Counted from the stretch's first letter, positions 1,196-18,095 are shown. The stretch is DNA of 20,000 nucleotides from an uncultured virus (IMG/VR IMGVR_UViG_3300032608_000348) (IMGVR_UViG_3300032608_000348), one strand, 5' to 3'. Translations and numbers: made by a program. The notes: generated by a model from the sequence alone, not told the origin.

Positions 1196-1221
1196 ATTTC
1201 TATCCAGCGCTAGAGTGATTT
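1196..1221. promoter_or_regulatory. Box A 26-bp palindrome, copy 1
   Basis: ATTTCTATCCAGCGCTAGAGTGATTT, intergenic; matches 5 other copies. Confidence 0.75.
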
Positions 1222-2585: not shown

Positions 2586-2586
2586 T

Positions 2587-4089: not shown

Positions 4090-4145
4090 TTGTCAATCTT
4101 CCTCTGGCGTCCCATCCTCTTTGATTGGTTTGTCCACCTGATGCT

Positions 4146-4174: not shown

Positions 4175-5011
4175 TACTATGTGTTACACCAGTTTTTGTT
4201 ACCGCTATGGGGTTTCAACCCCTTGTGCACGCCGCGCGTCGCGCCAAGTTTTTTGGGCCACACCCCTGTGGCGGCAAGAAGGGTTGCAATCGCGCTGGCC
4301 ACAAGGATTGCGGTATGGCTCGGTCGCTATCATTGCGACTACCGCCCTTGCTATGGCAGGGAGAGCAACAGCGATTGCGACTGTGGCTGCTACTGCAACG
4401 CAAGTCAACTTCTGACTACATTGTTTATGTCAACCAGACTGTAAACTGGCGCAAGACCACTGCCAAGGGCAATAGAGATGTTGGTGTAGCAATGACACCA
4501 ACTACCGCTGCCAACCTGGTTGCAGACGTAGCCAGGCCACCAGGTTAGAATTTAGTGTATGCGTGACACTAAGCCTATCAGTAGCCACAACGTGTTTTGC
4601 AAAAGGCTTGCGCATAGTGATATAAGCACATGCAATTGCTAGCAAATTAAGGCTATTGGCACCAACAGCTACACAATAGCCTACACGTTAACGTTTAAGG
4701 GCGCTTTTTGTGGCCTGTTTCTAACACGGTAGCGTCTATTCAACAAACTGCATATACTCTTACACGGTAACGGATAAGAACTGGACAAAGCGACGGTAGA
4801 ATTTGGCAAACTGCAATGAGACATTGCCAAGATTGCGACGGCCGGTGCAATAGAATGTTGCAAGGCACAAGGCACAAGGGTGCTGGCAAGGGCTGTAGGG
4901 CCACAAAGAGGGCGCTTCTGCAATGCTTTATTGCAAGGCGGTGACAATCAAAGTGGTATTGACAGCAACCTTAAGGCTGGCAAGTGACACGCTTTCCTTA
5001 AGGTTAGGCTA

Positions 5012-5039
5012 TTGACAAAGCGCAATAATGTGCTACACT
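5012..5039 (+). promoter_or_regulatory. sigma70-type promoter driving the right arm and ncRNA candidate
   Basis: TTGACA-16 nt-TACACT with TGn extension; TATTGACAAAGC is shared with the promoter at 4146-4174. Confidence 0.75.
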
Positions 5040-5044
5040 TAAGT

Positions 5045-5600
5045 TGAAGGTGAAGGAAGGAAAGACAGGAACTTAAAAACTAGAAATAGAAAAACTCAAA
5101 ACTCTCAAGATAGGGAGAGGCGAACAGCCAAGGACCCGGGGCTCGCAAGAGAAGAGAAAAGGTAAACGAAGGGGAGGCTAACCGAAGGGGAGAGCAGAGA
5201 GGAATAAAATAACCGCAAGGCCGACAGACAGAGACGATGGAAGCGATTGGCCCGGAGACTTGGCGGTGACCTGAAAACTGGGAGAGACGCGCTGGCAACA
5301 GTGGAAACCTCTACCACCTAGTAAGAGAGCCAAGCAGCGTAACATACAATCGCGGATTCACCTGGGATAGGCCGACAGCGAGTAGCGAGAGAGTGAAGAC
5401 AGGCAAACTCATTACACTATTGTAACGGAGCTCAACTTGACATACTCCACACAATAGGAACGCAGAATGAGCGAGTTTGATTTCACTTTGGCGCACACAA
5501 ACGAAGAGGCGACAATTCCTGTAAAATAATAGACACAGGGGCAAGTCAAGCCAGGCTTGCATAGTTTGTGTGCAGCAAAGTGCGATCAAGCACTTGAGCA
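5045..5600 (+). ncRNA. large structured non-coding RNA candidate (family unassigned)
   Basis: no credible + strand ORF; nested helices 5243-5249/5347-5353, 5392-5397/5482-5487, 5404-5410/5473-5479, 5417-5423/5451-5457, 5493-5502/5564-5573; several GNRA-capped hairpins; sits right behind a promoter. Confidence 0.6.
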
Positions 5601-5634
5601 AAAAACAGAATCACAATCACATAAGGAGACGAAA

Positions 5635-5946
5635 ATGACAAGGAATAAGAGACTACTTCTGTTGAGCGTAGCACTATTGGCAATCGGACTGGGTAACGGC
5701 GCGTGCGGCGCGTCTGATGACTTGACAGTTGAGGCGGTAGTTGAGCACCAGACCGAGTCTGCGGAAAGCGGTGTAGAATGCGAGTACACGTTTATATCAA
5801 CAGAGATAAGCGTACGGCTAGCGCATTATCGTATCTGCGAAGATGACGATAATGACAAGCGTTTGGCCGCTTTGCAGAACGCTATAGATGATTGCGTGAA
5901 GGTGTGCGCTGATAACGCTGATTGCTTGGCGCAATGTGGCAAGTAG
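5635..5946 (+). CDS. putative lipoprotein
   Basis: TAAGGAG SD; basic n-region, hydrophobic h-region and GAC lipobox-like site (MTRNKRLLLLSVALLAIGLGNGAC). Confidence 0.7.
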   Translation: MTRNKRLLLLSVALLAIGLGNGACGASDDLTVEAVVEHQTESAESGVECEYTFISTEISVRLAHYRICEDDDNDKRLAALQNAIDDCVKVCADNADCLAQCGK

Positions 5947-6005
5947 TATATACACCGCCTGCGTGAGAGATTGCGCAGGCGGTACAGATCACAGGAGAGG
6001 ATAAA

Positions 6006-6350
6006 ATGACACATGCCATAGCACGTGCGTTACAAAGGTGTAACCCTTGTGCTTTCGGCCTAACAGCGGAAAGCGCAATCAGGAAAGCACAAAGCACAAT
6101 CGCAAGGCTGGCAAGTGAAAGGCCGGAACTTAGAGAATATTTGCTGATTGTCGCAAAGAGCAACAGGGTTGTAGCGGATAACGAAAAAGGATCACGCCGT
6201 AGCAATGGCGATCTGCTATGCGCAATTGTGCGCAATCGCAATGGTCGGCGAGTGATTGCTACAATGATACTCAGGCGCTCGTCACAGCCTACACGACTTG
6301 ACGGATTGCGCTATGTTATAGTGCAAGGCAATCAAGTCATTATTCTATAA
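6006..6350 (+). CDS. hypothetical basic protein, possible RelE/DUF4258-like fold
   Basis: N-terminal THAxxRxxxR and C-terminal beta strands ending VIAT; family assignment is a guess. Confidence 0.55.
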   Translation: MTHAIARALQRCNPCAFGLTAESAIRKAQSTIARLASERPELREYLLIVAKSNRVVADNEKGSRRSNGDLLCAIVRNRNGRRVIATMILRRSSQPTRLDGLRYVIVQGNQVIIL

Positions 6351-6364
6351 AGGGGAGGTATAAA

Positions 6365-6553
6365 ATGGGAAGCAAAGAAGCATCAAAAAAGTACCAGGAA
6401 CGGCAACGGGAAATATATGCAAAGTTGGAGTGCATCAAGGTTTCGCTTGAGAATCATCAAGAAGTTGCTGCCACGGTGCATTATGGGCACGTTGGAGACA
6501 TGGCGTATGTCAGTGGGCAACTTGATGAAATACTGACCTTTCTGAGAGTGTGA
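6365..6553 (+). CDS. hypothetical phage protein
   Basis: GGAGGT SD; 62 aa with HYGHVGD motif. Confidence 0.75.
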   Translation: MGSKEASKKYQERQREIYAKLECIKVSLENHQEVAATVHYGHVGDMAYVSGQLDEILTFLRV

Positions 6554-7074
6554 GAAGCATAATGCTAACATACAATCAGATTAGGAAACTGGCAAGGGCG
6601 TACTCGGACAAGCAAATGCTCAACAAAGATATGCGCTTGACACAGGGTGCTGGATGGTGGTCAAATGGCTTTGTCATGTTCCTGGAAAAAGAGCCAAAGA
6701 ACAAAAGCGACAAGTGTGAGGTCGCAGACGGGAAACAAGAACACCTTGACGACGTTATGCGCCAAGCGGAAGGGAGTGAGCAAGCGTGGCCAGTGGAGAT
6801 GCGCGCGCATGGCGACAGACGAATAAAGGCGTTTGTGCGATTTGAGACGATGGATGGGCAGCCCAATGTCATACTCAAGGACAATGCTTTTGCCGTTATG
6901 GAACTGGCAATCCATGAGATGGCGCATTACAGCGAAGCAAACCATAGCGCGCCTTACGAGAGCGCAAGATTTGAAATTGCCCGCAAGGTTGGCGTGGCGG
7001 CTCCTGCAATCCTGGCAACAATTGTCAATCTACAGGCAAGGCCAGCAAAGCGGGGGCGCTACTGGGAAAACTAG
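6550..7074 (+). CDS. hypothetical protein with C-terminal HExxH zincin motif
   Basis: GTGA overlap with upstream stop (alternative ATG 6562); LAIHEMAHYSEANH. Confidence 0.65.
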   Translation: MRSIMLTYNQIRKLARAYSDKQMLNKDMRLTQGAGWWSNGFVMFLEKEPKNKSDKCEVADGKQEHLDDVMRQAEGSEQAWPVEMRAHGDRRIKAFVRFETMDGQPNVILKDNAFAVMELAIHEMAHYSEANHSAPYESARFEIARKVGVAAPAILATIVNLQARPAKRGRYWEN

Positions 7075-7080
7075 GGAAAA

Positions 7081-7104
7081 GGGCAGGGTAGTACCTGCCC
7101 GATC
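7081..7104 (+). repeat. hairpin-GATC module
   Basis: GGGCAGG-GTAGTA-CCTGCCC then GATC; second copy at 7156-7178. Confidence 0.75.
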
Positions 7105-7181
7105 ATGGGCCTCGGCCGGACCACTGCCAGTCCACATCTACAGCCACGGGCAGTCGGCAGGGTAAAACCTGCCTGATCAAA

Positions 7182-7200
7182 TGTAGTATATGATACTACA
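7182..7200. promoter_or_regulatory. Box B 19-bp palindrome (inverted copy)
   Basis: TGTAGTAT-ATG-ATACTACA just upstream of an SD. Confidence 0.75.
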
Positions 7201-7221
7201 AATTCACAAAGAGGAGACAAA

Positions 7222-7410
7222 ATGACACCAGAAGAAAAAAGAGAAAAGTACTCGGGCGTCAAGGTGACGCTTGACGGTCAAGCAGCAGAAATTATCGGAT
7301 ACCGCCACAAGTTTGCGGCAGTCGCAACCTTGCCCACTGGCGCGGCTTACCAGTGGACATGGGACGCTGTTGAGCTCGTCGTGAGCAAGGGCGGAGATTT
7401 TCGGAGTTAG
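7222..7410 (+). CDS. hypothetical phage protein
   Basis: GAGGAG SD, 62 aa. Confidence 0.75.
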   Translation: MTPEEKREKYSGVKVTLDGQAAEIIGYRHKFAAVATLPTGAAYQWTWDAVELVVSKGGDFRS

Positions 7411-7432
7411 TCAAGAATCCAAAAGGAGAAAA

Positions 7433-7663
7433 ATGACAGGATATGAGTTAATCAAAAGAATCAACAAAATGGCAAAGAGTCCAGTGCAATATAGGGCAAA
7501 CTGGAAAAAGCCTGCGGAGAGAATAGCAGGTCAAGTTGAGGATATAATCAGCAGACTGCGCGCGTTTGCCAATCACCACAAAGAGGGTTGTGTTGCTGAC
7601 CGCTGCAACAGTGTGGCGGCCGACCTGGAAGCCAAGCTACAAGAATCCATGGCACAATTCTAA
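7433..7663 (+). CDS. hypothetical protein
   Basis: AAGGAG SD, 76 aa. Confidence 0.75.
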   Translation: MTGYELIKRINKMAKSPVQYRANWKKPAERIAGQVEDIISRLRAFANHHKEGCVADRCNSVAADLEAKLQESMAQF

Positions 7664-7678
7664 GGAGAGGAGGTCAAG

Positions 7679-7906
7679 ATGACTTGGCAAACAAGGAAAC
7701 TGGGATATGGGACGGATGTACCGTTGGAAGACTGGCACATTGTTACAGAGAAATTCTTTCGATGCAATATGGGACGCAAGCGCACACACATCAAAGCGGA
7801 CTTGCTGGCATTTCTTGAAACCCATCCTGGCACTGCATTCAAAACACTATTCCGAGAATTCAGGTTTATGTCTTTCCCAAAGGGAGGAAGCAATGAGTCG
7901 GGATAA
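7679..7906 (+). CDS. hypothetical protein
   Basis: GGAGGT SD, 75 aa. Confidence 0.7.
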   Translation: MTWQTRKLGYGTDVPLEDWHIVTEKFFRCNMGRKRTHIKADLLAFLETHPGTAFKTLFREFRFMSFPKGGSNESG

Positions 7907-8084
7907 CCTACGACAGAAACAGGATAGAATCCTGGAACTTGTGGACAGTCTAGGGATAAACAGGAACTTGCGCATATCCTCAGATTTTCCTGGCTCCCCG
8001 CAGGTCTGGGAGTTGGCGCATTTCGTTTTTCCAGAATGGGAAGCTGCCATAAATGCAACATTGCGTTACCTTGAGCAAAAGTAG
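7893..8084 (+). CDS. hypothetical protein
   Basis: GGAGG SD ahead of MSRDNLRQKQ. Confidence 0.7.
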   Translation: MSRDNLRQKQDRILELVDSLGINRNLRISSDFPGSPQVWELAHFVFPEWEAAINATLRYLEQK

Positions 8085-8111
8085 GCAAAAGTCCAAAAAG
8101 GAGAGAATAAA

Positions 8112-8354
8112 ATGATTACAAAGGCACAGTTGCAGGAAATCCAAATCGGTCAGCGCATCGGGTCAGTGACGGCTCCATGGTTTTTTCCCTCCCCTGGGTT
8201 GTGCGAAAGAGAGGGCAGGGTCATCGACAAAATCTCTGGCAAGTGGGGCAATTACCTGATGGTGGAACTTGATGACGGCGAGGTGACGACGGCATACTCC
8301 TGCTATGACGCCAACAAGCGTGAGGGAATTGGCTGGTATGCGTTGGAAGGATAA
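8112..8354 (+). CDS. hypothetical protein
   Basis: AAGGAG SD, 80 aa. Confidence 0.75.
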   Translation: MITKAQLQEIQIGQRIGSVTAPWFFPSPGLCEREGRVIDKISGKWGNYLMVELDDGEVTTAYSCYDANKREGIGWYALEG

Positions 8355-8413
8355 ACTCAGACGGTCCAGAAGTCCAAAGACACACACAAGAAAAGGCTGA
8401 AAAGGAGATAGGA

Positions 8414-8572
8414 ATGGAAACCAAATACATCAAATACGAGGGTGAAGTTTACAAGGTGCTGGCCTCGCGCTGGCTGGGAGACTTTTCGTTCTACAAACTG
8501 GAAAGCCAATTCAGCGGCGGCGCGCCCTTTGGCGCGAAAAAGGCAGAATGCAAGGAGGCGGGCGCGTCGTAA
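8414..8572 (+). CDS. small hypothetical protein (52 aa, METKYIKYEGEVYKVL...)
   Basis: AAGGAG SD; absent from ORF track; TAA lies in the loop of the 8559-8582 hairpin-GATC module. Confidence 0.7.
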   Translation: METKYIKYEGEVYKVLASRWLGDFSFYKLESQFSGGAPFGAKKAECKEAGAS

Positions 8573-8625
8573 GCGCCCGATCTGGGAAAATCCAGAATCA
8601 CATATCACAAGAAAAGGAGATGGAA

Positions 8626-9132
8626 ATGAGAACCAACTTGACAGCATCGGACGTAACGCAGGAACTGGTTGACTTGGTGACCGAGTACTTGGCAATGCGA
8701 GTGATTGCGGAAGTTACGCGGCAGGAAGTTGACAAGGTGCAGCGCGAGATATTGCAGGACATCATCCTGATGAGTACGCCGCACGAGTACCCACATGGCA
8801 GAAGTCAAGCGCCTGAGCGAATTACCGACCCCAAACGGACTTACCGCTGCGAAGATGACGCCACCACACAGGCATACTGGAACGCGGTTGATGCTCGGTT
8901 GCGTGCTGAAGGCATCAAGCCAGAGAGCATGGAAGCGGATTACTGCCCTGCCTTGGTAGCAGAAGATGTTCAAGTAAAAGCGGAGTGGGCAATCCTGGAT
9001 GAAGCTGCCAAAATGCTTGACACCTTCACGGGAAAAGGTGAGATGAATAACGCGCTGCTTTGCCAGAAAGACGGATTGGCAAAGCGGCAGGAGTTTATAG
9101 ATTTGACCGTTGGGCTAGTGTTGAATCTATAA
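8626..9132 (+). CDS. hypothetical protein
   Basis: AAGGAG SD after Box C; MRTNLTASDV. Confidence 0.8.
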   Translation: MRTNLTASDVTQELVDLVTEYLAMRVIAEVTRQEVDKVQREILQDIILMSTPHEYPHGRSQAPERITDPKRTYRCEDDATTQAYWNAVDARLRAEGIKPESMEADYCPALVAEDVQVKAEWAILDEAAKMLDTFTGKGEMNNALLCQKDGLAKRQEFIDLTVGLVLNL

Positions 9133-9175
9133 AGTGAAAGTCCCAAACATATCACAAAAAAGGGGAAAAGGTAAA

Positions 9176-9589
9176 ATGAGTGCATACGTAGTGGATGACA
9201 GAGTAATTAACAAAGTAGTGGCGTGGTTGGGTTGCAAGGCGCTGGGCAGTGGGTACAACAGCTATCCTGTTGCAGGATACAACCTTACCATAAGAACCGA
9301 GTGCCAGCGATTGGCTGAGGACATGTTCGGTCTCAATGTCAAGGCCGTGAACGCTCGGTATGGGGAAGGTGAAGCGGAAAGGTTCCGCCCACCTGATTTT
9401 GAGTACGTTCCCAGAGTTCCTGGCAATCGGTTCTCTGTTATCCGTGCGCTGGAAAATTGGCACTACCAGTGTGCGGAAGGCGATGTACCTGAAACAGCGC
9501 TGTACAAAGCAATGGGCGCGGTGCTACGGGCACTGTACCGCCGCGTGGTACAGAGTTTGCCCGAGTATGAGCGGGAACCTTTGCCATAG
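9176..9589 (+). CDS. conserved-looking phage hypothetical protein
   Basis: MSAYVV...NVKAVNARY...YQCAE pattern; purine-rich SD. Confidence 0.75.
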   Translation: MSAYVVDDRVINKVVAWLGCKALGSGYNSYPVAGYNLTIRTECQRLAEDMFGLNVKAVNARYGEGEAERFRPPDFEYVPRVPGNRFSVIRALENWHYQCAEGDVPETALYKAMGAVLRALYRRVVQSLPEYEREPLP

Positions 9590-9644
9590 TCCAAAAGTAG
9601 GCGACTGGGAATCCAAAAGCATATCACAAAAAAGGAGATGAAAA

Positions 9645-10064
9645 ATGTACTACAATCTGGAAAGTTCACAGGCTGACAGAATCAACTTTGACGAAATGGT
9701 AGAACGGTACGCGCGCGCCATGGTAGGCACATTGTCAGATTCCGAGGCGCGGGGAGTGGACATGGACGAGTACATCGCCTTGGCCTGGGACAACTTTGAC
9801 GCCGACGTGGTAGATGATATTGCAGAAGCAAGGGCGCGCTTTTTCCCCACCTTCCGCGATGAAGTCGCCAGTATTATTTTCGAGGCCCACGGCGCTGAGT
9901 TTAGCTTCTTCCGAGACCTGCCTGCACCAAGGGGTGAGCGCGGCGGCTGGGTTTGGTGCTTGAGTGGCGAGAAGGGGGGGCTGCTCTGGGAAACAGACAA
10001 CTACGAGGCTGACAATCGGGTGGAGGCACAAGCTGCCGCGATTGACTACCTACAAGCCTTATAA
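9645..10064 (+). CDS. acidic hypothetical protein
   Basis: AAGGAG SD after Box C; D/E-rich. Confidence 0.75.
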   Translation: MYYNLESSQADRINFDEMVERYARAMVGTLSDSEARGVDMDEYIALAWDNFDADVVDDIAEARARFFPTFRDEVASIIFEAHGAEFSFFRDLPAPRGERGGWVWCLSGEKGGLLWETDNYEADNRVEAQAAAIDYLQAL

Positions 10065-10320
10065 AGTACACGGCTGGCAAGTCCAGCCGATCAAGGGGCT
10101 TTCCCCTCCCCAGCTTGCGGTGACTGGAATACCAGACCAGTAGTCTCAACAAGACTGCCCAACAAGCCCGCAAAGGTAGCATACAAGCTGGGGTGGGGTG
10201 TGTCCCGATCACTAAAAGGGAGCGCCGTTCGATTCGGCACTGCGCATTGAACCTTTTGCGTCGCAGACAAACGGCTGTTAGGCCAGCATGCTGCCAGCGG
10301 GGCAGGCTCCTGATCCTGGA

Positions 10321-10346
10321 GAATCACTCCAGCGCTAGACAGATTT
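10321..10346. promoter_or_regulatory. Box A 26-bp palindrome, copy 2
   Basis: GAATCACTCCAGCGCTAGACAGATTT immediately before SD. Confidence 0.75.
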
Positions 10347-10360
10347 TGAGGAGGAAAATA

Positions 10361-10762
10361 ATGGGCAACTATGGCAATACCGCAGAGTTGAAAGTGACAA
10401 TCACGGGGCCACATGCGTATATGCTGGAACGCTATGCTGAAGTGCAAGAACTCCTTGCCCAGAAGATTAGCGCGGATTTATGGGATGTGATGGGGCAGGC
10501 CATTGGCACGACTGCGCCCGCCAACTACACTGTCAAGATTGAAAGTGAAGACTTGACCAGTGAAGCCAACGCAGGTGCAGTAGTTAAGAGCAATGAAAAC
10601 AAGGCGCTTTCTGATTGGCAGTGGCCCAAAAGCTGGCCTGTTGAACGTGACCAAGAGTTTGTGGAGTTTTGCCAATCGCTCGTCCGAGAACATGGCGAAG
10701 ACTTGAGCGCGTGTGATTATCAAGACATCAGGGACATTTTTGTGCAGTCTGGTGGATGCTGA
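10361..10762 (+). CDS. hypothetical protein; C-terminus shared with 13839-14207
   Basis: GAGGAGG SD ahead of MGNYGNTAEL. Confidence 0.75.
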   Translation: MGNYGNTAELKVTITGPHAYMLERYAEVQELLAQKISADLWDVMGQAIGTTAPANYTVKIESEDLTSEANAGAVVKSNENKALSDWQWPKSWPVERDQEFVEFCQSLVREHGEDLSACDYQDIRDIFVQSGGC

Positions 10763-10779
10763 AGGGAAAGGGGGGAAAG

Positions 10780-10962
10780 ATGCAACTGACGCTAGAAAAT
10801 CTCAAGGAAAATCCGGAAGGGTTTGAGCAAGAACTGGCACGGCAGGGCAGGGTGTTAATGTACGCTGTTGGCAATGGGTTGGTTTATCCTACGCCAGAGG
10901 CTGCGCTTGAAGCATCAAGCAACCCTCAAGCCGCTGAACTACTGGCGGCTGTTATTGTGTAG
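10780..10962 (+). CDS. hypothetical protein
   Basis: G-rich SD ahead of MQLTLENL; stop TAG lies inside Box B. Confidence 0.7.
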   Translation: MQLTLENLKENPEGFEQELARQGRVLMYAVGNGLVYPTPEAALEASSNPQAAELLAAVIV

Positions 10963-10976
10963 TATCATATACTACA
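10958..10976. promoter_or_regulatory. Box B 19-bp palindrome
   Basis: TGTAGTAT-CAT-ATACTACA abutting SD. Confidence 0.8.
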
Positions 10977-10987
10977 AGGAGACGAGA

Positions 10988-11182
10988 ATGACAGTAGCAG
11001 AGTTAATTGAAAAGCTCTTTGAGTGCAATTTAGATGCACCGGTGACGGTGTTTTTCGACCGCTACAACGGCGGTGACTATAGACAGGGGGAAGAATCCCC
11101 AGTGCTAGTTGTGGATGGGGACTATGTAATGATTGCTGCTGAAAGTGAGAAAGATGCAGCAGAGCATTGGGTGGGCGCATAA
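10988..11182 (+). CDS. hypothetical phage protein (MTVxELIEKL type)
   Basis: AAGGAG SD; stop in hairpin loop GGGCGC-ATAA-GCGCCC. Confidence 0.75.
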   Translation: MTVAELIEKLFECNLDAPVTVFFDRYNGGDYRQGEESPVLVVDGDYVMIAAESEKDAAEHWVGA

Positions 11183-11191
11183 GCGCCCGCT

Positions 11192-11214
11192 CTTGTAGTA
11201 TCATATACTACAAG
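11192..11214. promoter_or_regulatory. Box B palindrome (10-bp arms)
   Basis: CTTGTAGTAT-CAT-ATACTACAAG. Confidence 0.8.
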
Positions 11215-11236
11215 CCTACAAAAAGGAGACGGAAAA

Positions 11237-11431
11237 ATGAGAGCGCAGTTGATTTTCAAGATTGAAAGCGACATTGAGGGAATAGCCGTATTGTCAGAGG
11301 CTGCGCCCAGATGGGAAGCTCACGGTTTTGAGACGTACAAAAAGGCGGTCGCGCTGAACGGCAATTCCGCCTTTGTGGAAACGGTAGAGGCGGGATGGCG
11401 GCTTGTTCGGGCTGCTGAGTCCCAACGGTAG
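11237..11431 (+). CDS. hypothetical protein
   Basis: AAGGAG SD, 64 aa. Confidence 0.75.
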   Translation: MRAQLIFKIESDIEGIAVLSEAAPRWEAHGFETYKKAVALNGNSAFVETVEAGWRLVRAAESQR

Positions 11432-11465
11432 AAATCCGGCAGCATATAATACAAAGGAGTCTAAA

Positions 11466-11771
11466 ATGATAATCGCTACCATAGAAATCCAGAAGACCCG
11501 CAAGGGTTGGGGTTGCTGCACTGTCGTTGAGTATCCTGGTTGGCCCCATCCTGCCAAGACACATGAGGGATTTGACACGCTGAAAAGTGCGCTGTGGCAT
11601 TTTGTACTAGATTGCATTGACTATGACTGGGCAATTGAATCAGTCACGGTGAAGGGTGAGAACATGCCACTGGCGGAGGTCTGTGAGATAGTTGAGAAGG
11701 CGCTGCGTGACGGGGTGCTTAAGTACCGGCTGCCTGGTGTACGCGAGGCGCTTAGGCCAAAGGGCGCATAA
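11466..11771 (+). CDS. hypothetical protein
   Basis: AAGGAG SD ahead of MIIATIEIQK; stop in hairpin loop GGGCGC-ATAA-GCGCCC. Confidence 0.75.
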   Translation: MIIATIEIQKTRKGWGCCTVVEYPGWPHPAKTHEGFDTLKSALWHFVLDCIDYDWAIESVTVKGENMPLAEVCEIVEKALRDGVLKYRLPGVREALRPKGA

Positions 11772-11788
11772 GCGCCCGATCATGGGTA

Positions 11789-11814
11789 AAATCTATCCAG
11801 CGCTAGAGTGAATT
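11789..11814. promoter_or_regulatory. Box A 26-bp palindrome, copy 3
   Basis: AAATCTATCCAGCGCTAGAGTGAATT between hairpin-GATC and SD. Confidence 0.75.
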
Positions 11815-11831
11815 CTAAGAATTAAGGAGAT

Positions 11832-12176
11832 ATGATGAACCTAACATTGAAACAAGCGCAGAAAATGGAATCCAGCGGGATTATCACCTTCAAGGGGTTT
11901 AGTGGTATAGTCGCTACCGCTGAGATGGCGTCGGTCTGTCCGCAGTTGTGCCAAGTGTATGCCTCAAGTGGAAATGTCTATGACGTAGAGTTTAACGGCA
12001 CCTTCACGCTGGTGGAAGCAGAAGCGCCAGGGCCAGCCATTTGTGAGCGATGCGGAAAAGAACCAGCCACAAATGACTTTTGCGGGGTTGCGACTTGCTG
12101 GAACTGCTTGGTACGTCCACCCTACCGTGAGAACTGGGATGAGGATAGAGGGGAACTGACGGAGGAAACAAAATGA
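11832..12176 (+). CDS. hypothetical protein with C-terminal zinc finger
   Basis: TAAGGAG SD; CERC...CWNC. Confidence 0.7.
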   Translation: MMNLTLKQAQKMESSGIITFKGFSGIVATAEMASVCPQLCQVYASSGNVYDVEFNGTFTLVEAEAPGPAICERCGKEPATNDFCGVATCWNCLVRPPYRENWDEDRGELTEETK

Positions 12177-12625
12177 AAGACGCAAAAGAATCAGCGCAGA
12201 AAGTGCGCAAGGTCCTAAAGGCAAAGTATCCAAAAACAAAGTTCAGCGTGTGCTCAAAACACTTTGCTGGAGGTTCATCTGTTGATGTAAGATGGACGGA
12301 TGGCCCGACTGAGAAAGAAGTAGAGGAAGCCACAAAGCACCTGAAGGGCTACCATAACGGCTACTATAATGACTACATTTGCACTGCTCGGCACACAAGC
12401 CGCGCCGTGATGGTGGCTGCGGCAAAGGCGGTATCCGAATTCTACGGGGTGCCTATGCCAGAGGTGCTTGGTGATGAGCACTTCTATCTCACTGACTTGA
12501 CGCGGGTGGGAGACGAGGCGCTTTGTGATGAAGTGCATAGGGCAGTTTGGAAAACCAACACTTACGACAAGACACCAGAGGAAGCATTTGCTGACTGGGG
12601 TGCTTGCGGGGCGCTGTTTCGGTAG
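12173..12625 (+). CDS. LPD29 (large polyvalent protein-associated) domain protein
   Basis: recognised signature VRKVLKAKYPKTKFSV...GGSSVDVRWTDGPT; ATGA overlap. Confidence 0.75.
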   Translation: MKDAKESAQKVRKVLKAKYPKTKFSVCSKHFAGGSSVDVRWTDGPTEKEVEEATKHLKGYHNGYYNDYICTARHTSRAVMVAAAKAVSEFYGVPMPEVLGDEHFYLTDLTRVGDEALCDEVHRAVWKTNTYDKTPEEAFADWGACGALFR

Positions 12626-12700
12626 CAATCAGGGCAGGATGAAAAAAGCCTGCCCCGATCATTGGGTAAAATGTAGCATCATACTACAAAGGAGGATTTA

Positions 12701-13768
12701 ATGGCAACAATGTCACAACAAATTGAGAGTGTCACCGCCAGCCTAGGGATTCCTGTGCGGGTTGTGGGAGTCACTGATGCCGCGCAGGTGACCAAGTACC
12801 AGGTCAAGCCTCTGCCCCGCGTTCTGGCGTCTGGACGCAAGGGGAAAATGACCTATGTAAGCGCCATTATGACCAGGGCGCTTGACATCGGGGTTGGTCT
12901 TGGCGTGGAAAACGTCACGGTATCAGCGAACGGGCAACTCTTTATTGAGGTGCCCAAGTCCAAGCCGCAGGCTGTTTTTACGCCTGCGAGGGTATACACC
13001 AATGGTGAGGAGTTGCCCATCATGCTGGGCGTGGATACCGCCAATGAGCAAGTGATTCTTGACTTGGCAAAGTGTCCTCACCTGATGATAGCTGGTACAA
13101 CTGGCTCTGGCAAGTCAGTGTGCCTGACCAATGTGCTGACGGGCCTCATCAAGTACCGTGATGCCAGTCGCGTCCAACTGGTGCTTATTGACCTGAAGCA
13201 CACTGAGTTGAGCCAGTTTGCAGAAGTGGAGCACCTGGTCCGTGACGTAGCATATACAGCGGAAGAAGCAGAAGCAACCCTGTCCTGGCTGATGGCAGAA
13301 GTTGACCACCGCTACCGTATGATGAAGAAGCACGGGGCGCAAGACATCTCGGAAATCGCCAGCAACAGGATTGTGGTAGTGGTGGATGAATTTGCCAACC
13401 TGATTTTACAGGGAAGCAAAGAACTGAAGAAAAGGTTCATTCACATTGCCCAGGGCGGACGGGCTGCGGGCGTGCACTTTATCGTGGCAACTCAGCGCCC
13501 ATCCCGTCAAGTTGTGGATGGTCTTTTCAAGGGCAACTTTGCCACGAGGGTATGCTTCCGCACAGCGGACAAAACCAACTCCCGAATTGTTCTTGACCGG
13601 AATGGCGCGGAAGCGCTGATGGGCAAGGGCGACGGACTGCTATTGCACAATGGCAAGCCGCGTAGGTTTCAAGGCTTCATGATGCCTGACGCAGAGATAG
13701 CACGAGTGGTTGAGCGCAACCGTAAGCGCAATCTGGTGGGGCGCATCTGGAAGCGCTTGACCGGTTAG
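12701..13768 (+). CDS. FtsK/SpoIIIE-family ATPase (motor domain only)
   Basis: PHLMIAGTTGSGKS Walker A, VVVVDEFA Walker B, GRAAGVHFIVATQRPS, GAEALMGKGDGL. Confidence 0.93.
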   Translation: MATMSQQIESVTASLGIPVRVVGVTDAAQVTKYQVKPLPRVLASGRKGKMTYVSAIMTRALDIGVGLGVENVTVSANGQLFIEVPKSKPQAVFTPARVYTNGEELPIMLGVDTANEQVILDLAKCPHLMIAGTTGSGKSVCLTNVLTGLIKYRDASRVQLVLIDLKHTELSQFAEVEHLVRDVAYTAEEAEATLSWLMAEVDHRYRMMKKHGAQDISEIASNRIVVVVDEFANLILQGSKELKKRFIHIAQGGRAAGVHFIVATQRPSRQVVDGLFKGNFATRVCFRTADKTNSRIVLDRNGAEALMGKGDGLLLHNGKPRRFQGFMMPDAEIARVVERNRKRNLVGRIWKRLTG

Positions 13769-13838
13769 TGCAACAAGGCAGGTGAAAGCCTGCCTGATCT
13801 GGGAAAATCCAAAATCATATCAAACAAGGAGATGAAAA

Positions 13839-14207
13839 ATGAAAGATGAGGTTCTTTTTATTGAGGGCTGTCACGAAATGAAACGACCCGATAGTATACC
13901 TGAAAGCTGGACAATTTACAACGCGCCCCGCCCGCTGCTCGGTCACGAGAGATGGCAGGCCGGATTCCGGCATGGCATTTTCTACGCCGCTGTCACTCCT
14001 GTTGGTGACCCAGCCGATGAGTTCAACGATGCACCTGAGTTTCACAGGCGCAATCGTGAACTAGACGGGCATGTATGCGTGTGGATTGGCAAGGAGCACG
14101 TAATGGAGTATGGCAAGGCACTAGCTCGGGAATATAACGTAGACCTGAGCGAGTTTGATTACCAAGACATTGTGTGCAGCTTCTTGGATGACAGAAGCCG
14201 CAATTGA
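13839..14207 (+). CDS. hypothetical protein
   Basis: AAGGAG SD after Box C; C-terminus similar to 10361-10762. Confidence 0.75.
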   Translation: MKDEVLFIEGCHEMKRPDSIPESWTIYNAPRPLLGHERWQAGFRHGIFYAAVTPVGDPADEFNDAPEFHRRNRELDGHVCVWIGKEHVMEYGKALAREYNVDLSEFDYQDIVCSFLDDRSRN

Positions 14208-14244
14208 GAGACGTGGCATCATACTACAAAAGGGAGGCAAAGTA

Positions 14245-14589
14245 ATGGTAACACTTACACTGTACAAAAATCTTGATGAAGACCAGCCTATAACATTCAA
14301 GGCGCGAACGATGGGAAAGGTTACGCTCAAGTTATCCGAGTGGATGGACAAAAACAACGGCACATTTGACCCACGCCAAGGGACTTATCCAATGGGTTGC
14401 GACGGGCTGACCGTTTTCTTGGAGGATTGGCCTGGGGATATTGTCCTATGCTATATGGAAATCTACAAGGAATGGGAAATCACCTTTGACCAAGACCCCG
14501 CCAATCCAGAAGGATACACGAACTATGCCGATGCTCGCGAGCGATTTGTCCAGCTAGCAGATGATTGGGGAGAATGGGAGGAAGCATGA
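14245..14589 (+). CDS. hypothetical protein, paralog of next gene
   Basis: GGAGG SD; MVTLTLYKNLDEDQPITF. Confidence 0.8.
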   Translation: MVTLTLYKNLDEDQPITFKARTMGKVTLKLSEWMDKNNGTFDPRQGTYPMGCDGLTVFLEDWPGDIVLCYMEIYKEWEITFDQDPANPEGYTNYADARERFVQLADDWGEWEEA

Positions 14590-14918
14590 TACTAACACTG
14601 TACCGAAACTATGATACCACGCAGCCTGTGAAGTTTGAGGGACGGTCCAAAGAAGGATTGCTCTACAAGCTCCAGCAGTGGCTGGACAACGCCAACGGTG
14701 AGATTGACCACGGGAAACAGCGCCACAAGCCGCTTTGGGCGGATGGGCTTGCCATTGTCCCCAGCGGACGGGGGGCAATTGTACTGATGCGAAATGGCAA
14801 GAAATGGGAGGTTTGGAAAGGCGCAACGTCCAAGCCACTGGCGTCTGCAAGCTGGGTTATCGCTCGTGCTATTTTCCTGCACTATGCATACACCCACTGC
14901 AAGGAAGAAACCCCTTGA
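14586..14918 (+). CDS. hypothetical protein, paralog of previous gene
   Basis: ATGA overlap; MILTLYRNYDTTQPVKF. Confidence 0.8.
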   Translation: MILTLYRNYDTTQPVKFEGRSKEGLLYKLQQWLDNANGEIDHGKQRHKPLWADGLAIVPSGRGAIVLMRNGKKWEVWKGATSKPLASASWVIARAIFLHYAYTHCKEETP

Positions 14919-14949
14919 CAAAAGCGCAGAAATGTAGTATCATATACTA
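14915..14949 (+). promoter_or_regulatory. sigma70-type promoter overlapped by Box B
   Basis: TTGACA-17 nt-TATCAT; the -10 lies inside TGTAGTATCATATACTA. Confidence 0.75.
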
Positions 14950-15019
14950 AGGGATTGGCGTGGGGGCTAGTAAAATCTGGCACGGATGCGCAGTCCATAT
15001 TTTAATGATAGGAGGCAAA

Positions 15020-15190
15020 ATGGAAAGGCAAGATTGTGAGTTTTGCAGAGAGACTGACGGGGAACATGCTTCTTGGTGTCCATATACGGTGGAAAGACAA
15101 GATTGTGGGTTTTGTGGCTGGACTGATGGGGAGCATGCCCCAGGCTGCCCACGCGACCCAGAGGAAAACGGCCTGAGCGGGGACTGGTAA
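15020..15190 (+). CDS. small protein with two tandem CxxC-H-C zinc-binding repeats
   Basis: AGGAGG SD; 69-bp period duplication ERQDCxFCxxTDGEHAxxCP. Confidence 0.75.
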   Translation: MERQDCEFCRETDGEHASWCPYTVERQDCGFCGWTDGEHAPGCPRDPEENGLSGDW

Positions 15191-15303
15191 AATCCAGCAC
15201 GCAGGCAAATGTGAGCGCTTACGGAGAACATCCGCAGATGGGGAGGCCAGATAGGGGGAACTGGCAACGCCAATCGTGAGAGCAAATCGTAAAGGAGCAA
15301 AAT

Positions 15304-15609
15304 ATGGAAAATGAAGAGTACCTGTGGCTCAACCTTTCAGACCTGAGCGAAATGGGCAGCGTAGGCAACTTGTGCAACCCTATCTACTTTATGGTATGCC
15401 CTGACCTTGGAGATGAGAATGTTGGCACGTATGCTCACGCTGACAAACTTGATGAAGTCTATATTGTACTCAAGTCCAGTGCTGAACGATGCAAGGCAAT
15501 TCGTGAGGCAATGGAATTGATTGGGGAAAAGAAAATCGGGCGCAAGGTCCGAACACGAACAACCAAGAACTCCCCGCGCGCCAACTGGCGCTGGCTGGGG
15601 AGTTGGTAG
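15304..15609 (+). CDS. hypothetical protein
   Basis: AAGGAG SD, 101 aa. Confidence 0.75.
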   Translation: MENEEYLWLNLSDLSEMGSVGNLCNPIYFMVCPDLGDENVGTYAHADKLDEVYIVLKSSAERCKAIREAMELIGEKKIGRKVRTRTTKNSPRANWRWLGSW

Positions 15610-15634
15610 TCCAAACAGGACAAAAGAAAGAACA

Positions 15635-15826
15635 ATGGAAGACATACAAATAGTGGAACAAATCTTCGTAGAAGTTACCGCAATCTACAGATTGAAGCAT
15701 CAACAGGTGAAAGCCCAGAAACTAGCAGGGCATATCCGCCATCTCAGGCATCTGGCCTGGAACTCCCTGACCCCAAAGGAGAGATTGATGATTCGGGAGG
15801 TGTTAGACTATGTGAACAACCAGTAG
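15635..15826 (+). CDS. hypothetical protein
   Basis: MEDIQIVEQ; purine-rich leader, SD weak. Confidence 0.6.
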   Translation: MEDIQIVEQIFVEVTAIYRLKHQQVKAQKLAGHIRHLRHLAWNSLTPKERLMIREVLDYVNNQ

Positions 15827-15891
15827 TCCAAAAGACATTGGCAGAAACAGGGGCAATTGAGACCTCACACACACGAAAAGGAGGTAGGGAG

Positions 15892-16164
15892 ATGATTGAC
15901 AGAGAGCTTTTTGCCAACACTAATACAGTTCCGATGTGCCCTGGTGGCTTGGACGCAATCGTAAATAAGAAGTTTACGGTTGTGTACTGGAAAAAGTACA
16001 GCGATGCCCTGGTCATTTACCAGTGCCAAATGGCGGACGGGCGGCGCGAAACAGTGGCACAGTTCTCGCTGGAGAGCGAGCGCTTTCTGGAACGTTCCAG
16101 CCTTCCAGTACGGGCGCGGATGAGCTGGGATGGTTGGCGCTATAAGCTAGTAGTGGGCGACTGA
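15892..16164 (+). CDS. hypothetical protein
   Basis: AAGGAGGT SD ahead of MIDRELF. Confidence 0.75.
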   Translation: MIDRELFANTNTVPMCPGGLDAIVNKKFTVVYWKKYSDALVIYQCQMADGRRETVAQFSLESERFLERSSLPVRARMSWDGWRYKLVVGD

Positions 16165-16214
16165 GACCCCCAATGACAAAGGGCGCAGAAGCGCCCGATC
16201 CAGGAGGAGCAGCA

Positions 16215-16379
16215 ATGCGCAAGAAAACCAAGTCAGAAAAGCGGGAAGAGGCGCGACGCAAGAAGCGGTACGGCATGCGCGTCTCTGGACGCTCAACCAA
16301 AACCTTATTGGCGCTTCTTGCGTCCAAGTCCAAGCCACGACGCAAGAAAAAGAAGAAAAAGAAAAGGAGAAAACGATGA
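16215..16379 (+). CDS. small extremely basic Lys/Arg-rich protein
   Basis: AGGAGGAG SD; MRKKTKSEKREEARRKKRYGMRVSGRS...RRKKKKKKKRRKR. Confidence 0.65.
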   Translation: MRKKTKSEKREEARRKKRYGMRVSGRSTKTLLALLASKSKPRRKKKKKKKRRKR

Positions 16380-16600
16380 ATCTCAAAGATGTACGTCCTG
16401 GAACGGTTGTACAATTGGATTGCGGCTGTATAGTGGTCACTTCAGCGCTGGGCGACCGCAAACACCGCTACGTGATGCAAGAAAGCGGTGTGCCGCTCCG
16501 TACTGCGTCCAACCAAGAAGTGGAAGTCTTTGGCGTGGCGTGGGCTGCTGACCTTGCGGCTGTGCTGATTGCGCACGTGAAGAAATCACTCCAGCGCTAG
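16376..16600 (+). CDS. hypothetical protein
   Basis: AAGGAG SD, ATGA overlap; stop TAG inside Box A copy 4 (16583-16608). Confidence 0.7.
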   Translation: MNLKDVRPGTVVQLDCGCIVVTSALGDRKHRYVMQESGVPLRTASNQEVEVFGVAWAADLAAVLIAHVKKSLQR

Positions 16601-16631
16601 ACAGAAACTGAAAAATCCAAAGGAGAAAGCA

Positions 16632-16844
16632 ATGACAAGTCCAGATTTTAGATTGAGAGTGCATTTTGGAGAAATGGAAACGACCTATGAGATGCTTGTT
16701 GGAGAGCAATCACTGGGAAGCCGTTATTGGCGCTGCCATAGTCCGCTTCCTGCCACCAGGAAGACAGCCATTCTTTTTGAAGAGCTTAAGGCAGCCCTGG
16801 GGCGGTTTCATAATAGGGTTAGGGAGGAGGGAAAGTCCAAATGA
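16632..16844 (+). CDS. hypothetical protein
   Basis: AAGGAG SD, 70 aa. Confidence 0.7.
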   Translation: MTSPDFRLRVHFGEMETTYEMLVGEQSLGSRYWRCHSPLPATRKTAILFEELKAALGRFHNRVREEGKSK

Positions 16845-17016
16845 AGTCCAAACTTACTATCATTCTTCTGGTGTTGCTCTTAGTGGCCTGCGGCGGCACA
16901 GTGGCCACGCCCACGCCAACACCTACGTCATACGAGGTGGCTATAGTGGACGTGCTCAGCCAGTATGCCCAAGCGATAACGCGCCTCAAGAAATCTATCC
17001 AGCGCCGGAGTGATTT
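16841..17016 (+). pseudogene. lipoprotein N-terminal fragment ending at Box A copy 5
   Basis: LVAC lipobox + ATPTPTPT linker; frame runs through the palindrome and the tRNA to a stop at 17143. Confidence 0.5.
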
Positions 17017-17038
17017 TAACACTCTCTCTCAACCAAGA

Positions 17039-17110
17039 AGGGGCGTAGTCCAACTGGCAGGACAGTGGCCTTTGAAGCCAAAGATGCAGGTTCAAATCCT
17101 GCCGCCCCTG
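17039..17110 (+). tRNA. tRNA-Gln(UUG)
   Basis: cloverleaf: acceptor AGGGGCG/CGCCCCT, D stem GTCC/GGAC, anticodon loop CTTTGAA, T arm GCAGG-TTCAAAT-CCTGC; no encoded CCA. Confidence 0.92.
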
Positions 17111-17139
17111 TTGCGCAAAAATTGCCACACGCTAACCTC

Positions 17140-17168
17140 TTGACAGGAACAGGGAAGTGTGGTAAGAT
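17140..17168 (+). promoter_or_regulatory. sigma70-type promoter
   Basis: TTGACA-17 nt-TAAGAT with extended -10 TG. Confidence 0.85.
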
Positions 17169-17175
17169 AGGAACA

Positions 17176-17306
17176 GTTAGGGGGAGCTACGGCGCGGCAG
17201 ACGCCGGTGAAGAGGAGCGCTCGTGCGGAGCTTCGGGGACTCGAAAAGCCTGCCACTTCTCCGTGGCAAGGCTAGATGACAGGGGAAGGACCTGTCTCCC
17301 CCTAAC
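17176..17306 (+). ncRNA. structured small RNA candidate 1
   Basis: perfect 11-bp closing stem GTTAGGGGGAG/CTCCCCCTAAC starting at the predicted TSS, with three or more internal hairpins. Confidence 0.6.
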
Positions 17307-17318
17307 AAGTACAATCAA

Positions 17319-17422
17319 GATTCCCCGCGCTGTTTGAGACGGCGGTACGCTCAATAAAGAGCAGGGGCCTAGTTGGAAGAATGGGGAAAGGGAAAACCGG
17401 GTAGACGGCAGCGCGGGGAATC
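17319..17422 (+). ncRNA. structured small RNA candidate 2 / long inverted repeat
   Basis: perfect 14-bp stem GATTCCCCGCGCTG/CAGCGCGGGGAATC enclosing 76 nt. Confidence 0.5.
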
Positions 17423-17456
17423 CTGAAAAATCAACAAGGCAGGAAAGGAGCGCAAA

Positions 17457-17810
17457 GTGATAAGGTTCTACTGTGAAAGATGCGGGAAAGAGATGTGGGA
17501 ACTGGCAGAGGAACTAGCAGGATGGGATAGCCTCCGCCATATTCCGCTTGGTAAAGTAAAACAGTTGCTTGTCTGTTCTGATTGCTTGCTTGCTGAGATG
17601 CGCGGGGGCGCAGTGCCCGTGAAGGTGAAGAAAGCCCAATACGCAATCCAGTGGGTGGATGATGAGTGCGTAGGCTACCTGTGCGCCTGTGGAGAAAAAG
17701 AGGTGCTGATTGTGTCTATCTATGAAGATTCACCTGCGCATTGCCCGACGTGTGGGAGGGCCTATGTGCTGCGCCAGTCCAACACGGTAATAGAACTTGC
17801 TCACGCATAA
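17457..17810 (+). CDS. zinc-finger protein
   Basis: AAGGAG SD, GTG start; CERC, CSDC, CAC, CPTC. Confidence 0.7.
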   Translation: MIRFYCERCGKEMWELAEELAGWDSLRHIPLGKVKQLLVCSDCLLAEMRGGAVPVKVKKAQYAIQWVDDECVGYLCACGEKEVLIVSIYEDSPAHCPTCGRAYVLRQSNTVIELAHA

Positions 17811-17857
17811 TGTATTACACCCATTTTGATGCTGCGGTGGGATTTTTTGTAGCATCA

Positions 17858-17883
17858 TAATCACTCCAGTGCTGGAGTGAAAA
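17858..17883. promoter_or_regulatory. Box A palindrome, copy 6, fused to a Box B half-site
   Basis: TAATCACTCCAGTGCTGGAGTGAAAA preceded by TGTAGCATCA, abutting SD. Confidence 0.7.
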
Positions 17884-17894
17884 GGAGACAAGCA

Positions 17895-18095
17895 ATGATG
17901 ACAGTGGAAGATATTCTGAAGCGGGTAGAGAGAATCAGGAACAGCGATGGCGACAATGAAGATATGCACTTTGATGAAGACGTGTTGTGGGAGAATGTGC
18001 TAGAAGCCATTGCGCGTGGTGCCCCCAACGCCCCAGAATTGGCACAAGCTGCCCTGCGCACAAAGGAACTGAAGTTTACGCGGTGGTATGCGTAG
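17895..18095 (+). CDS. hypothetical phage protein
   Basis: AAGGAG SD; MMTVEDILKRVERI...FTRWYA. Confidence 0.75.
   Translation: MMTVEDILKRVERIRNSDGDNEDMHFDEDVLWENVLEAIARGAPNAPELAQAALRTKELKFTRWYA

Follow-up and report, generated by a model that had tools for sequence, protein, structure and literature searches.

An uncultured freshwater phage (IMG/VR IMGVR_UViG_3300032608_000348) is represented here by a stretch of 20,000 bases (50% GC), called the window below. Its small plus-strand genes are recurrently separated by composite intergenic modules: a GC-rich hairpin at the end of one gene, the tetranucleotide GATC at the foot of this hairpin, optionally one of three short boxes (A, B and C), and finally a Shine-Dalgarno sequence (SD) and a start codon, which close every module that has a downstream gene. 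The gene calls are our own, each an open reading frame (ORF) plus SD, and form a minus-strand cluster (1-4090) and, after a gene-free stretch (about 4190-5630), a series of small plus-strand genes from 5635 to the end. Pfam families were recognized in just 4 of the 50 scanned ORFs: LPD29 (12173-12625), an FtsK/SpoIIIE-type ATPase (12701-13768), a DUF2688/zinc ribbon protein (17457-17810, starting with the GTG at 17457) and an Rnl2-type RNA ligase (18170-19090). Searches of the same 50 ORFs against Pfam and PHROGs gave no integrase, recombinase, HUH domain or transposase, and the window shows no T4 core genes. Its single tRNA gene is that of tRNA-Gln (17039-17110), and an Rfam scan of the window at gathering and E <= 1 thresholds detected nothing beyond tRNA. 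Two studies contribute the seven metagenome runs (freshwater or viral-fraction) in which the window is present. None of 50,697 phage DNA records matches it, and the FtsK-like protein matches those of cultured phages at no more than 60% identity (all below this value). Elsewhere, homologues occur for the FtsK-like protein at 80% and 77% and for LPD29 at 81% identity, and gene 13839-14207 has 21 homologues; in IMG/VR, no relative was found with the FtsK-like protein or its alignment as a query.

The hairpins were collected by a scan of the plus strand for perfect stems of at least 6 bp with at least 4 GC pairs and a loop of 3-10 bases. This yielded 31 hairpins, ten of which are GC-rich and lie at gene ends. 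GATC follows nine of these ten, starting 0-4 bases past the stem or sharing its last G, and none of the other 21 has GATC directly after it (binomial P = 2e-16 over the window and 7e-14 under an intergenic-only null); the single exception among the ten, at 11173, carries GCTC instead. The ten hairpins (16-30 nt, with perfect stems of 6-10 bp) use five stem sequences, including a GGGCGC stem and a GGCAGG stem with four occurrences each. In scripted pair counts over the six outer stem pairs, all 60 of 60 cells are Watson-Crick, with two to four pair types per column. Pairing is thus kept despite varied stem sequence, so that it is the fold and not the sequence that is selected. The placement of the hairpins is also precise. 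Three unrelated genes have their TAA stop codon in the loop and their last codons as the 5' arm, with proteins ending in GA, GA and GAS, and in three further cases the stem begins 6-7 nt past the stop codon. The word CCYGATC occurs nine times, always on the plus strand, and the units share one orientation relative to transcription.

The units, all read on the plus strand, are as follows. After gene 5635-5946, a hairpin with a 10-bp stem is followed by ACA and GATC (5954..5990). The hairpin GGGCAGG/CCTGCCC with GATC at 7081..7104 begins 6 nt past the stop codon of gene 6562-7074 and opens a boxless, 'empty' unit of 74 nt (gene-free 7105-7178), which runs into a second hairpin, GGCAGG/CCTGCC, followed by T, GATC, AAAT and Box B (7156..7199; the box, at 7183-7199, is a loop-inverted copy). 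At 8559..8625, a hairpin with TAA in its loop is followed by GATC, TGGGAAAAT, Box C and SD. A gene-free stretch of 296 nt (10065..10360) has three GATC (10089, 10207 and 10312), then Box A (10323-10343) and SD. Hairpins with TAA in the loop recur at 11173..11211, with GCTC and Box B (11195-11211), and at 11762..11834, with GATC, ATGGGTAAAAT, Box A (11791-11811) and SD. Directly before the FtsK-like gene, a hairpin is followed by C, GATC, ATTGGGTAAAAT, the Box B variant B' (12673-12689) and SD (12632..12700); at 13776..13838, the order is hairpin, GATC, TGGGAAAAT, Box C and SD; and the last unit consists of hairpin, GATC and SD only (16181..16214). The gene that follows it (16215-16379) codes for 54 residues, extremely basic with Lys/Arg runs, and its product possibly binds nucleic acid.

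A first-pass annotation of this DNA had described an ordered, mix-and-match module of hairpin, GATC, spacer, box and SD, citing the units at 7156, 8559, 11173, 11762, 12632, 13776 and 16181. All seven read as it described them, and hairpin-linked GATC are found in addition at 5987, 7101, 10089, 10207 and 10312. Three intergenic GATC stand in other settings: that at 10207 comes after a 15-bp long-range stem, that at 10312 after a 5-bp stem, and that at 5584 lies in a small loop. Its statement that each stem type occurs with more than one box is borne out too, the GGGCGC stem being found with C, with B, with A and with SD only, and the GGCAGG stem with nothing, with B, with B' and with C. The distance from GATC to the box is variable, which indicates that GATC belongs to the hairpin and not to a promoter. 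Two qualifications are needed. The numbers of gene calls between successive hairpin-GATC units are 1, 4, 6, 3, 3, 2, 2, 1 and 8, so the units do not hold single genes, as had been proposed, but one to eight; inside them, genes are tightly packed or are separated by Box B or Box C, both of which occur hairpin-free too. In addition, if hairpins end genes and boxes begin genes, the order hairpin, box, SD is in itself trivial.

A canonical intrinsic terminator was considered for these units and rejected, as no U-tract follows any of them on the plus strand. A terminator scan lists none of them on this strand, and those at 7081, 10071 and 16181 qualify on the minus strand only. Two further readings, a T7 class II terminator word and a GAUC that pairs with the tail of 16S rRNA, were likewise dropped, because spacing or order does not fit the consensus. 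Within the gene-free stretch at 10065..10360, a 118-nt unit (10098-10215) is predicted to form a long-range stem of 15 bp, in which 10103-10117 pairs with 10184-10198 but for one mismatch, around about 65 nt, followed by GATC; from this predicted fold it is a possible small structured RNA.

Outside the modules, GATC has been nearly purged from the window. Only 14 copies are present, all of them confined to 5584-16197, against 76.9 expected from base composition and 68.7 from a Markov model. The 37 plus-strand gene calls contain two, compared with 34.5 +/- 4.5 in 300 synonymous shuffles (minimum 20), and the 11 minus-strand gene calls contain none, compared with 9.9 +/- 2.3. The other 12 are in the 2,617 nt of intergenic DNA, and each is tied to a hairpin. 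That GATC survives precisely at hairpin feet implies a function for it there. Candidate roles are an RNA cleavage word, a methylation-sensitive signal and a directed DNA break site. Several more 4-base palindromes fall short of their Markov expectation (TCGA 8 vs 21, CCGG 20 vs 46, CATG 43 vs 89, AGCT 36 vs 73); depletion of several palindromes suggests restriction or repair avoidance at the DNA level. Our literature search found no description of a GATC purge with retention at hairpins.

Of the three boxes, Box B has the consensus GT(A/G)G-(T/C)ATCAT-A(TA)CTACAA. It occurs at four sites in the window against 0.01 in shuffles, with variants at 12673, 14213, 17849 and 11443. One copy (10959..10975, plus strand) overlaps the stop codon of gene 10780-10962 and abuts the next SD, and a B' copy (GTGG + CATCAT + ACTACAA; 14213..14229, plus strand) precedes gene 14245-14589. 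The box resembles part of a near-consensus, sigma-70-type promoter family, in which TTGACA is followed by 16-17 bases mostly ending in GTGG and then by TAnnAT; six members are in the window and eight in contigs of its relatives, which are introduced below. Those of the window lie at 389-417, 3029-3057 and 4146-4174 on the minus strand and at 5012-5039 (early), 14915-14943 and 17140-17168 on the plus strand. The GT(A/G)G of Box B matches the GTGG of this family, at the same place before the -10 element, and in the promoter TTGACA-17-TATCAT at 14915-14943 the -10 element lies inside a Box B copy, 14934-14950 (together 14915..14950). Thus, on sequence grounds, Box B probably represents the -10/start region of the phage's own sigma-70-type promoters and would act as a factor-dependent promoter; a factor would be needed because Box B has neither a -35 element nor an extended -10 TG. 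A promoter fits the two-base length difference between B and B' better than a dimer site or an RNA stem does. An N4-type hairpin-promoter reading of Box B was dropped, its spacing or order not fitting the consensus. The exact Box B word gave 42 single matches in IMG/VR, none on a sequence with a window protein.

The promoter at 5012-5039 probably drives the rightward gene cluster. It lies in the gene-free region of about 1.4 kb (4190-5630) that separates the divergent clusters and has no Rfam match, and it is flanked by CCTTAAGG palindromes (4969 and 4996; CTTAAG again at 5038). The leader downstream of it (5041-5400) is purine-rich (A 137, G 115, C 69, T 39; 14 GGA) and contains many SD-like words and no ORF. 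The region could combine an operator with an RNA sponge or a long leader. Similarly, the consensus promoter in 17140-17456 is followed by a GC-rich, hairpin-rich leader of about 290 nt, without an Rfam match at E <= 1, and then by the zinc-ribbon gene.

Box A is a 21-bp palindrome whose symmetric positions are invariant. There are six sites in the window against 0.00 in shuffles, four of them outside the range 5954-16207 flagged by the first-pass annotation. These are at 1199..1219 on the minus strand, before the minus-strand gene 893-1180, and on the plus strand at 16585..16605, overlapping the stop codon of gene 16376-16600, at 16993..17013, a variant upstream of the tRNA-Gln gene, and at 17849..17880, where a truncated Box B' is fused to a nearly perfect Box A palindrome (17860) and followed by SD. 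Together with the hairpin-GATC figures, these counts for Box A and Box B put the motifs far beyond chance. Box A precedes an SD by 4-25 nt, stands upstream of a consensus promoter (in contigs L080 and L098) or lies beside Box B in either order, and occurs in both half-site orientations relative to the gene. Its reading as an RNA hairpin was rejected, as the stem is not maintained by compensatory changes: among 16 copies from the window and its relatives, 69.5% of cells pair compared with 75.9% in shuffles (500 of 500 shuffles score at least as high), and one cell is changed on both sides where 4.9 are expected. Invariant symmetry without covariation makes a DNA site for a dimeric protein the better reading, and Box A is probably, as predicted from its symmetry, the site of a dimeric regulator. 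A sigma-54 reading was dropped for misfit of spacing or order to the consensus. The variant at 16993..17013 lies, together with the entire tRNA-Gln gene, inside an ORF (16841-17143) with a lipoprotein-like signal peptide.

Box C is a portable, A/C-rich leader, copies of which are similar right up to the start codon; 9632-9647 and 13826-13841 are identical over 16 bases including the ATG. Two copies with SD and without a hairpin are found on the plus strand at 9133..9175 and 9590..9644, the latter with the last bases identical to 13826-13841. A further element, TGGG(T/A)AAAAT, occurs four times, each time in intergenic DNA and after GATC. Apart from these, the word TCCAAA reaches 3.8 per kb in intergenic DNA vs 0.68 per kb in genes (7418, 8092, 8373, 9590, 9612, 13808, 15610, 15827, 16616, 16836 and 19282), often placed immediately after a stop codon (TAGTCCAAA, three times) or immediately before an SD (TCCAAAAGGAG). 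A role in the leader or in translation, or as a processing word, is possible.

Relatives of the window were sought through a degenerate Box A pattern. In metagenome contigs it gave 55 rows representing 54 distinct loci, three of which (L060, L092 and L096) encode homologues of window proteins with 54-85% identity. Eight further loci have window-like Box A contexts: six share the prefix of L060, L092 and L096, and the other two are L072 and L098. The remaining metagenome loci resemble chance or in-gene sites. The same pattern gave two single matches in IMG/VR, neither with a window protein at E <= 1e-5, and 39 loci in genome contigs, none with a homologue of a window protein.

In L060, L092 and L096 the modules stand out as islands of 93-100% identity, adjacent coding DNA being 70-86% identical, and the genes around the islands are swapped, missing or 60-85% identical in protein. 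Read in the same orientation as the window, L060 starts with an unrelated gene, Box C and a homologue of 8626-9132 (70% amino acid identity), followed by the hairpin of 10071 with GATC (34 nt, 97%); it continues with a 28-nt block (100%), GATC and Box A (48 nt, 96%) and a homologue of 14245-14589 (85% amino acid identity). Compared with the window, it is thus without genes 9176-10064, the 118-nt unit 10098-10215 and genes 10361-14207. Gene 14245-14589 has Box B' upstream in the window, and Box A and a TCCAAAAGG leader in L060. A different box before the same gene indicates that boxes have been exchanged over evolutionary time. This gene overlaps its neighbour 14586-14918, and the two are paralogues (33% identity over 105 residues). 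In L092, an island of Box A and SD (32 nt, 97%), corresponding to the copy at 1199..1219, has unrelated genes on both sides and a second Box A following, and L096 shows gene replacements, with Box A in place of the window gene 3667-4089. GATC is also rare in the relatives' assembly (22 vs about 77 expected, summed over nine loci). Two distant phage contigs that have only the LPD29 gene in common with the window, L138 and L139, contain 48 GATC vs 60.5 and 33 vs 52.1 expected, with no hairpin association. GATC being near expectation and hairpin-free there, the hairpin-GATC feature is lineage-specific.

Some contigs of the metagenome runs match Box A islands only and then diverge (ends at 1221, 10321/10347/10357, 16965/17017 and 17859; four runs), so boxes exist as dispersed repeats elsewhere in this genome or in its kin. 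Partial matches at 17066/17101 are due to other tRNA genes. A 469-nt deletion (705-1173) was found in one low-depth contig of run X6; it removes two minus-strand gene calls and is a natural gene-sized variant. Its junction lies downstream of Box A and the SD of this box, at a distance of about 20 nt.

From the motifs and their statistics, the conserved hairpin fold and the mosaic junctions in relatives we infer both the molecular functions of the elements and their part in recombination. With moderate confidence, we consider the modules to be composite regulatory cassettes, like the promoter-early stem-loops (PeSLs) of T4-type phages, located at mosaic junctions in a plastic early-gene region of 10.6 kb. 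In this scheme, groups of one to eight genes would be bounded by modules assembled from independent short elements. The GC-rich hairpin at or over the stop codon, with GATC at its 3' foot, would most likely form in the sense transcript and serve in attenuation, in protection of the 3' end or in processing. The optional TGGG(T/A)AAAAT would come next as a -10-like element, then one box, which would be a factor-dependent promoter (B), a site for a dimeric regulator (A) or a portable leader (C), and a strong SD with the start codon would end the module. Because the modules recur between unrelated genes, they are islands of near-identity where the gene content of relatives differs, and genes would likely be shuffled by recombination through these short homologies, a route demonstrated for the PeSLs of T4-type phages.

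Several observations weigh against this reading. The 118-nt indel is best explained by a repeated AAGG, 2 and 7 bases past the two GATC, and a 6-nt TGGCAA repeat borders the 469-nt deletion; neither junction is a crossover inside a box or at GATC. Strains with 99-100% identity (four runs from two studies) are collinear across all hairpin-GATC junctions, as seen in contig pieces covering, for example, 4925-6662, 6637-7870, 7931-9505, 8291-11810, 10489-13482 and 13472-18908; just two joints were found in the four runs (704->1174 and 19818->19972), both outside 5954-16207. This comparison of close strains is negative but uninformative. That with the relatives draws on three contigs (1.1-3.7 kb) of a single assembly, in which chimeras may have arisen at repeats, and gene boundaries are in any case where mosaic junctions are to be expected in a phage. 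As for regulation, a promoter scan yielded no -35/-10 pair for the hairpin-GATC modules, and hairpins are absent from the consensus promoters at 5012, 14915 and 17140; the only promoter elements that come after hairpins are the -10-like ones, Box B and TGGGWAAAAT. Box B at 10959 would put the transcription start inside an SD. Promoter or terminator activity of modules with no U-tract, -35 element or full sigma-70 promoter is therefore putative. Finally, the fixed place of GATC is not explained by a regulatory cassette. The active capture of genes at the motifs, also proposed in the first-pass annotation, is not supported: the two base-resolved indels are explained by microhomologies of 4-6 nt, and the near-identical strains are collinear. 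What stands of its cassette interpretation is a modular, reusable intergenic grammar with exchanged boxes and mosaic junctions, comparable to T4 PeSLs, with altered genes flanking near-identical modules in the relatives; single-gene units and the likeness to integrons do not.

The same observations give substance to an alternative that we regard as a tentative possibility, namely that the modules are purely regulatory, while shuffling proceeds by illegitimate or microhomology recombination anywhere and selection keeps those junctions that fall at gene boundaries, the coincidence being a by-product. Both base-resolved junctions are of this kind and no module is rearranged among near-identical strains; moreover, nearly all intergenic gaps carry motifs, so that a boundary junction touches one regardless. 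On the question whether the modules bring about the shuffling or are just boundary marks, the two junctions resolved to the base speak for microhomology. However, a by-product does not readily account for islands of 93-100% beside coding DNA of 70-86%, for the different boxes of gene 14245-14589 in the window and L060, or for three unrelated genes that end in a hairpin 5' arm with TAA in the loop, as if junctions form there. For PeSLs, crossovers mapped within the loop are described (PMC2839356).

What the regulatory-cassette reading leaves aside, the fixed GATC, might be met by a programmed cut site, which we consider unlikely: either a GAUC-specific RNA endonuclease would dice the early transcript, or GATC would be a site of DNA nicks or breaks that focus recombination, a possible example being a GATC-directed host nuclease acting on unmethylated phage DNA. 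If the DNA version were true, the phage would steer its own gene shuffling to safe cassette boundaries. The RNA version, taken by itself, is rather doubtful. It supposes that hairpin plus GAUC is the cleavage signal of a phage or host endoribonuclease that cuts the early transcript between gene groups; equally doubtful is its corollary that the cut leaves a protective 3' hairpin while genes purged of GATC keep the messages intact. A single cause would then cover both the two instead of 34.5 genic GATC and the 12 hairpin-associated intergenic ones, and the single orientation of CCYGATC relative to transcription and the conservation of fold rather than sequence fit an RNA signal. RNase III sites between the early genes of T7 are a functional analogy. 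On the other hand, no such enzyme is among the 50 ORFs of the window, and we know of no GAUC-specific endoribonuclease; the depletion of TCGA, CCGG, CATG and AGCT points to restriction avoidance at the DNA level; and since GATC is palindromic, strand asymmetry cannot separate selection on RNA from selection on DNA. Such cleavage is compatible with the regulatory part of the PeSL-like cassette reading.

It is very improbable that the units are integron-like, site-specific cassettes on whose hairpin-GATC or Box A palindrome a recombinase encoded beyond the window acts: a hairpin plus a fixed short core is indeed the general layout of attC and HUH-enzyme sites, and the gene-free units 7105-7178 and 10098-10215, the latter absent from L060, resemble empty cassettes, but the window ORFs contain no integrase, recombinase or HUH domain, the perfect 16-30 nt hairpins lack attC anatomy and delimit up to eight genes, the indel junction is at AAGG and not in GATC, the contigs of four runs show no excision or joint at any unit, and recombination at an unoriented palindrome such as Box A, with its six copies in 20 kb, would scramble the genome. 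Just as improbable are selfish elements like repetitive extragenic palindromic (REP) sequences or miniature inverted-repeat transposable elements, with GATC as part of the element or a target site not yet purged: REP elements do have a conserved tetranucleotide beside a GC-rich palindrome, and the GGGCGC and GGCAGG stems are near-identical copies, four of each, but the precise placement at stop codons (TAA in the loop three times, stem 6-7 nt past the stop three times), the lack of a transposase among the window ORFs and the 97% conservation of hairpin 10071 in a relative with genes of about 70% identity, which argues for function, speak against them.

Descriptions of PeSL-type cassettes have so far come from T4-type phages, and the same logic appears here in an unrelated, uncultured freshwater phage. 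This suggests that phages generally use portable boundary modules to make regions of variable genes both expressible and exchangeable. The purge of GATC combined with its fixation at boundary hairpins would be the signature of a sequence-specific process, be it RNA cutting, methylation-dependent control or directed breakage, and the three boxes supply a phage group without a cultured member with candidate parts, namely a promoter, an operator and a leader. What makes the modules significant is above all the GATC signature and the extension of cassette-mediated mosaicism to phages not of the T4 type.

Comparison with known systems places the modules nearest to PeSLs. A PeSL is defined as a stop codon, stem-loop, promoter, SD and start codon, with a variable position of the stem-loop and with copies that recombine; the crossovers were mapped inside the cassette, as the published description has it (PMC2839356). 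PeSLs are reported for RB49/phi1, T4/PST and KVP40/nt-1, with a preference for neighbouring genes that belong to no known family, and at junctions between relatives (PMC2839356; PMC4122927). Here too, a short composite cassette begins at the stop codon, continues with a GC stem-loop and a promoter-like element and ends in SD and start codon, is dense among small genes without a known family, has variable element positions and lies at insertion, deletion and replacement junctions (L060, L092 and L096, short contigs of one assembly). In contrast to PeSLs, the hairpins have neither a -35 nor an AT-rich upstream element, the hairpin foot has a fixed GATC although the word is otherwise purged from the genome, there are three alternative boxes, one an operator-like palindrome, and T4 core genes are absent from the window. 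We therefore regard the modules as PeSL-like in their presumed mode of action without filing them as members of the PeSL family.

The likeness to integron cassettes is slighter. The attC sites of integrons are imperfect inverted repeats, 57-141 bp long, that contain extrahelical bases and have the core GTTRRRY. The units here could likewise be bounded by a folded site of the recombination type, and geneless units exist, but none of these attC traits (length, imperfect stems, extrahelical bases, core) is present, the tail is GATC, and no integrase was found among the 50 ORFs of the window; the units hold one to eight genes and have expression signals of their own. Stoperators are repressor sites of 13-14 bp oriented with transcription. 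Box A is similarly a short, regulator-type site repeated in short gaps near gene starts and stops, but it is a 21-bp palindrome in either orientation, for which reason it was rejected as a stoperator; its likeness is limited to that of a putative regulator site. For the L5 gp71 type of Cluster A mycobacteriophages, stoperators are described as asymmetric sites of a monomeric repressor (PMC9283540). Counter-selection of GATC and other palindromes, lastly, is documented in phage genomes: phiX174 has no GATC (PMC5014478), and avoidance of restriction sites is reported (PMC4687349). The window shares with these genomes a strong depletion of GATC and of other 4-base palindromes, but differs in that the surviving GATC are non-random, 12 of the 14 being intergenic and associated with hairpins.

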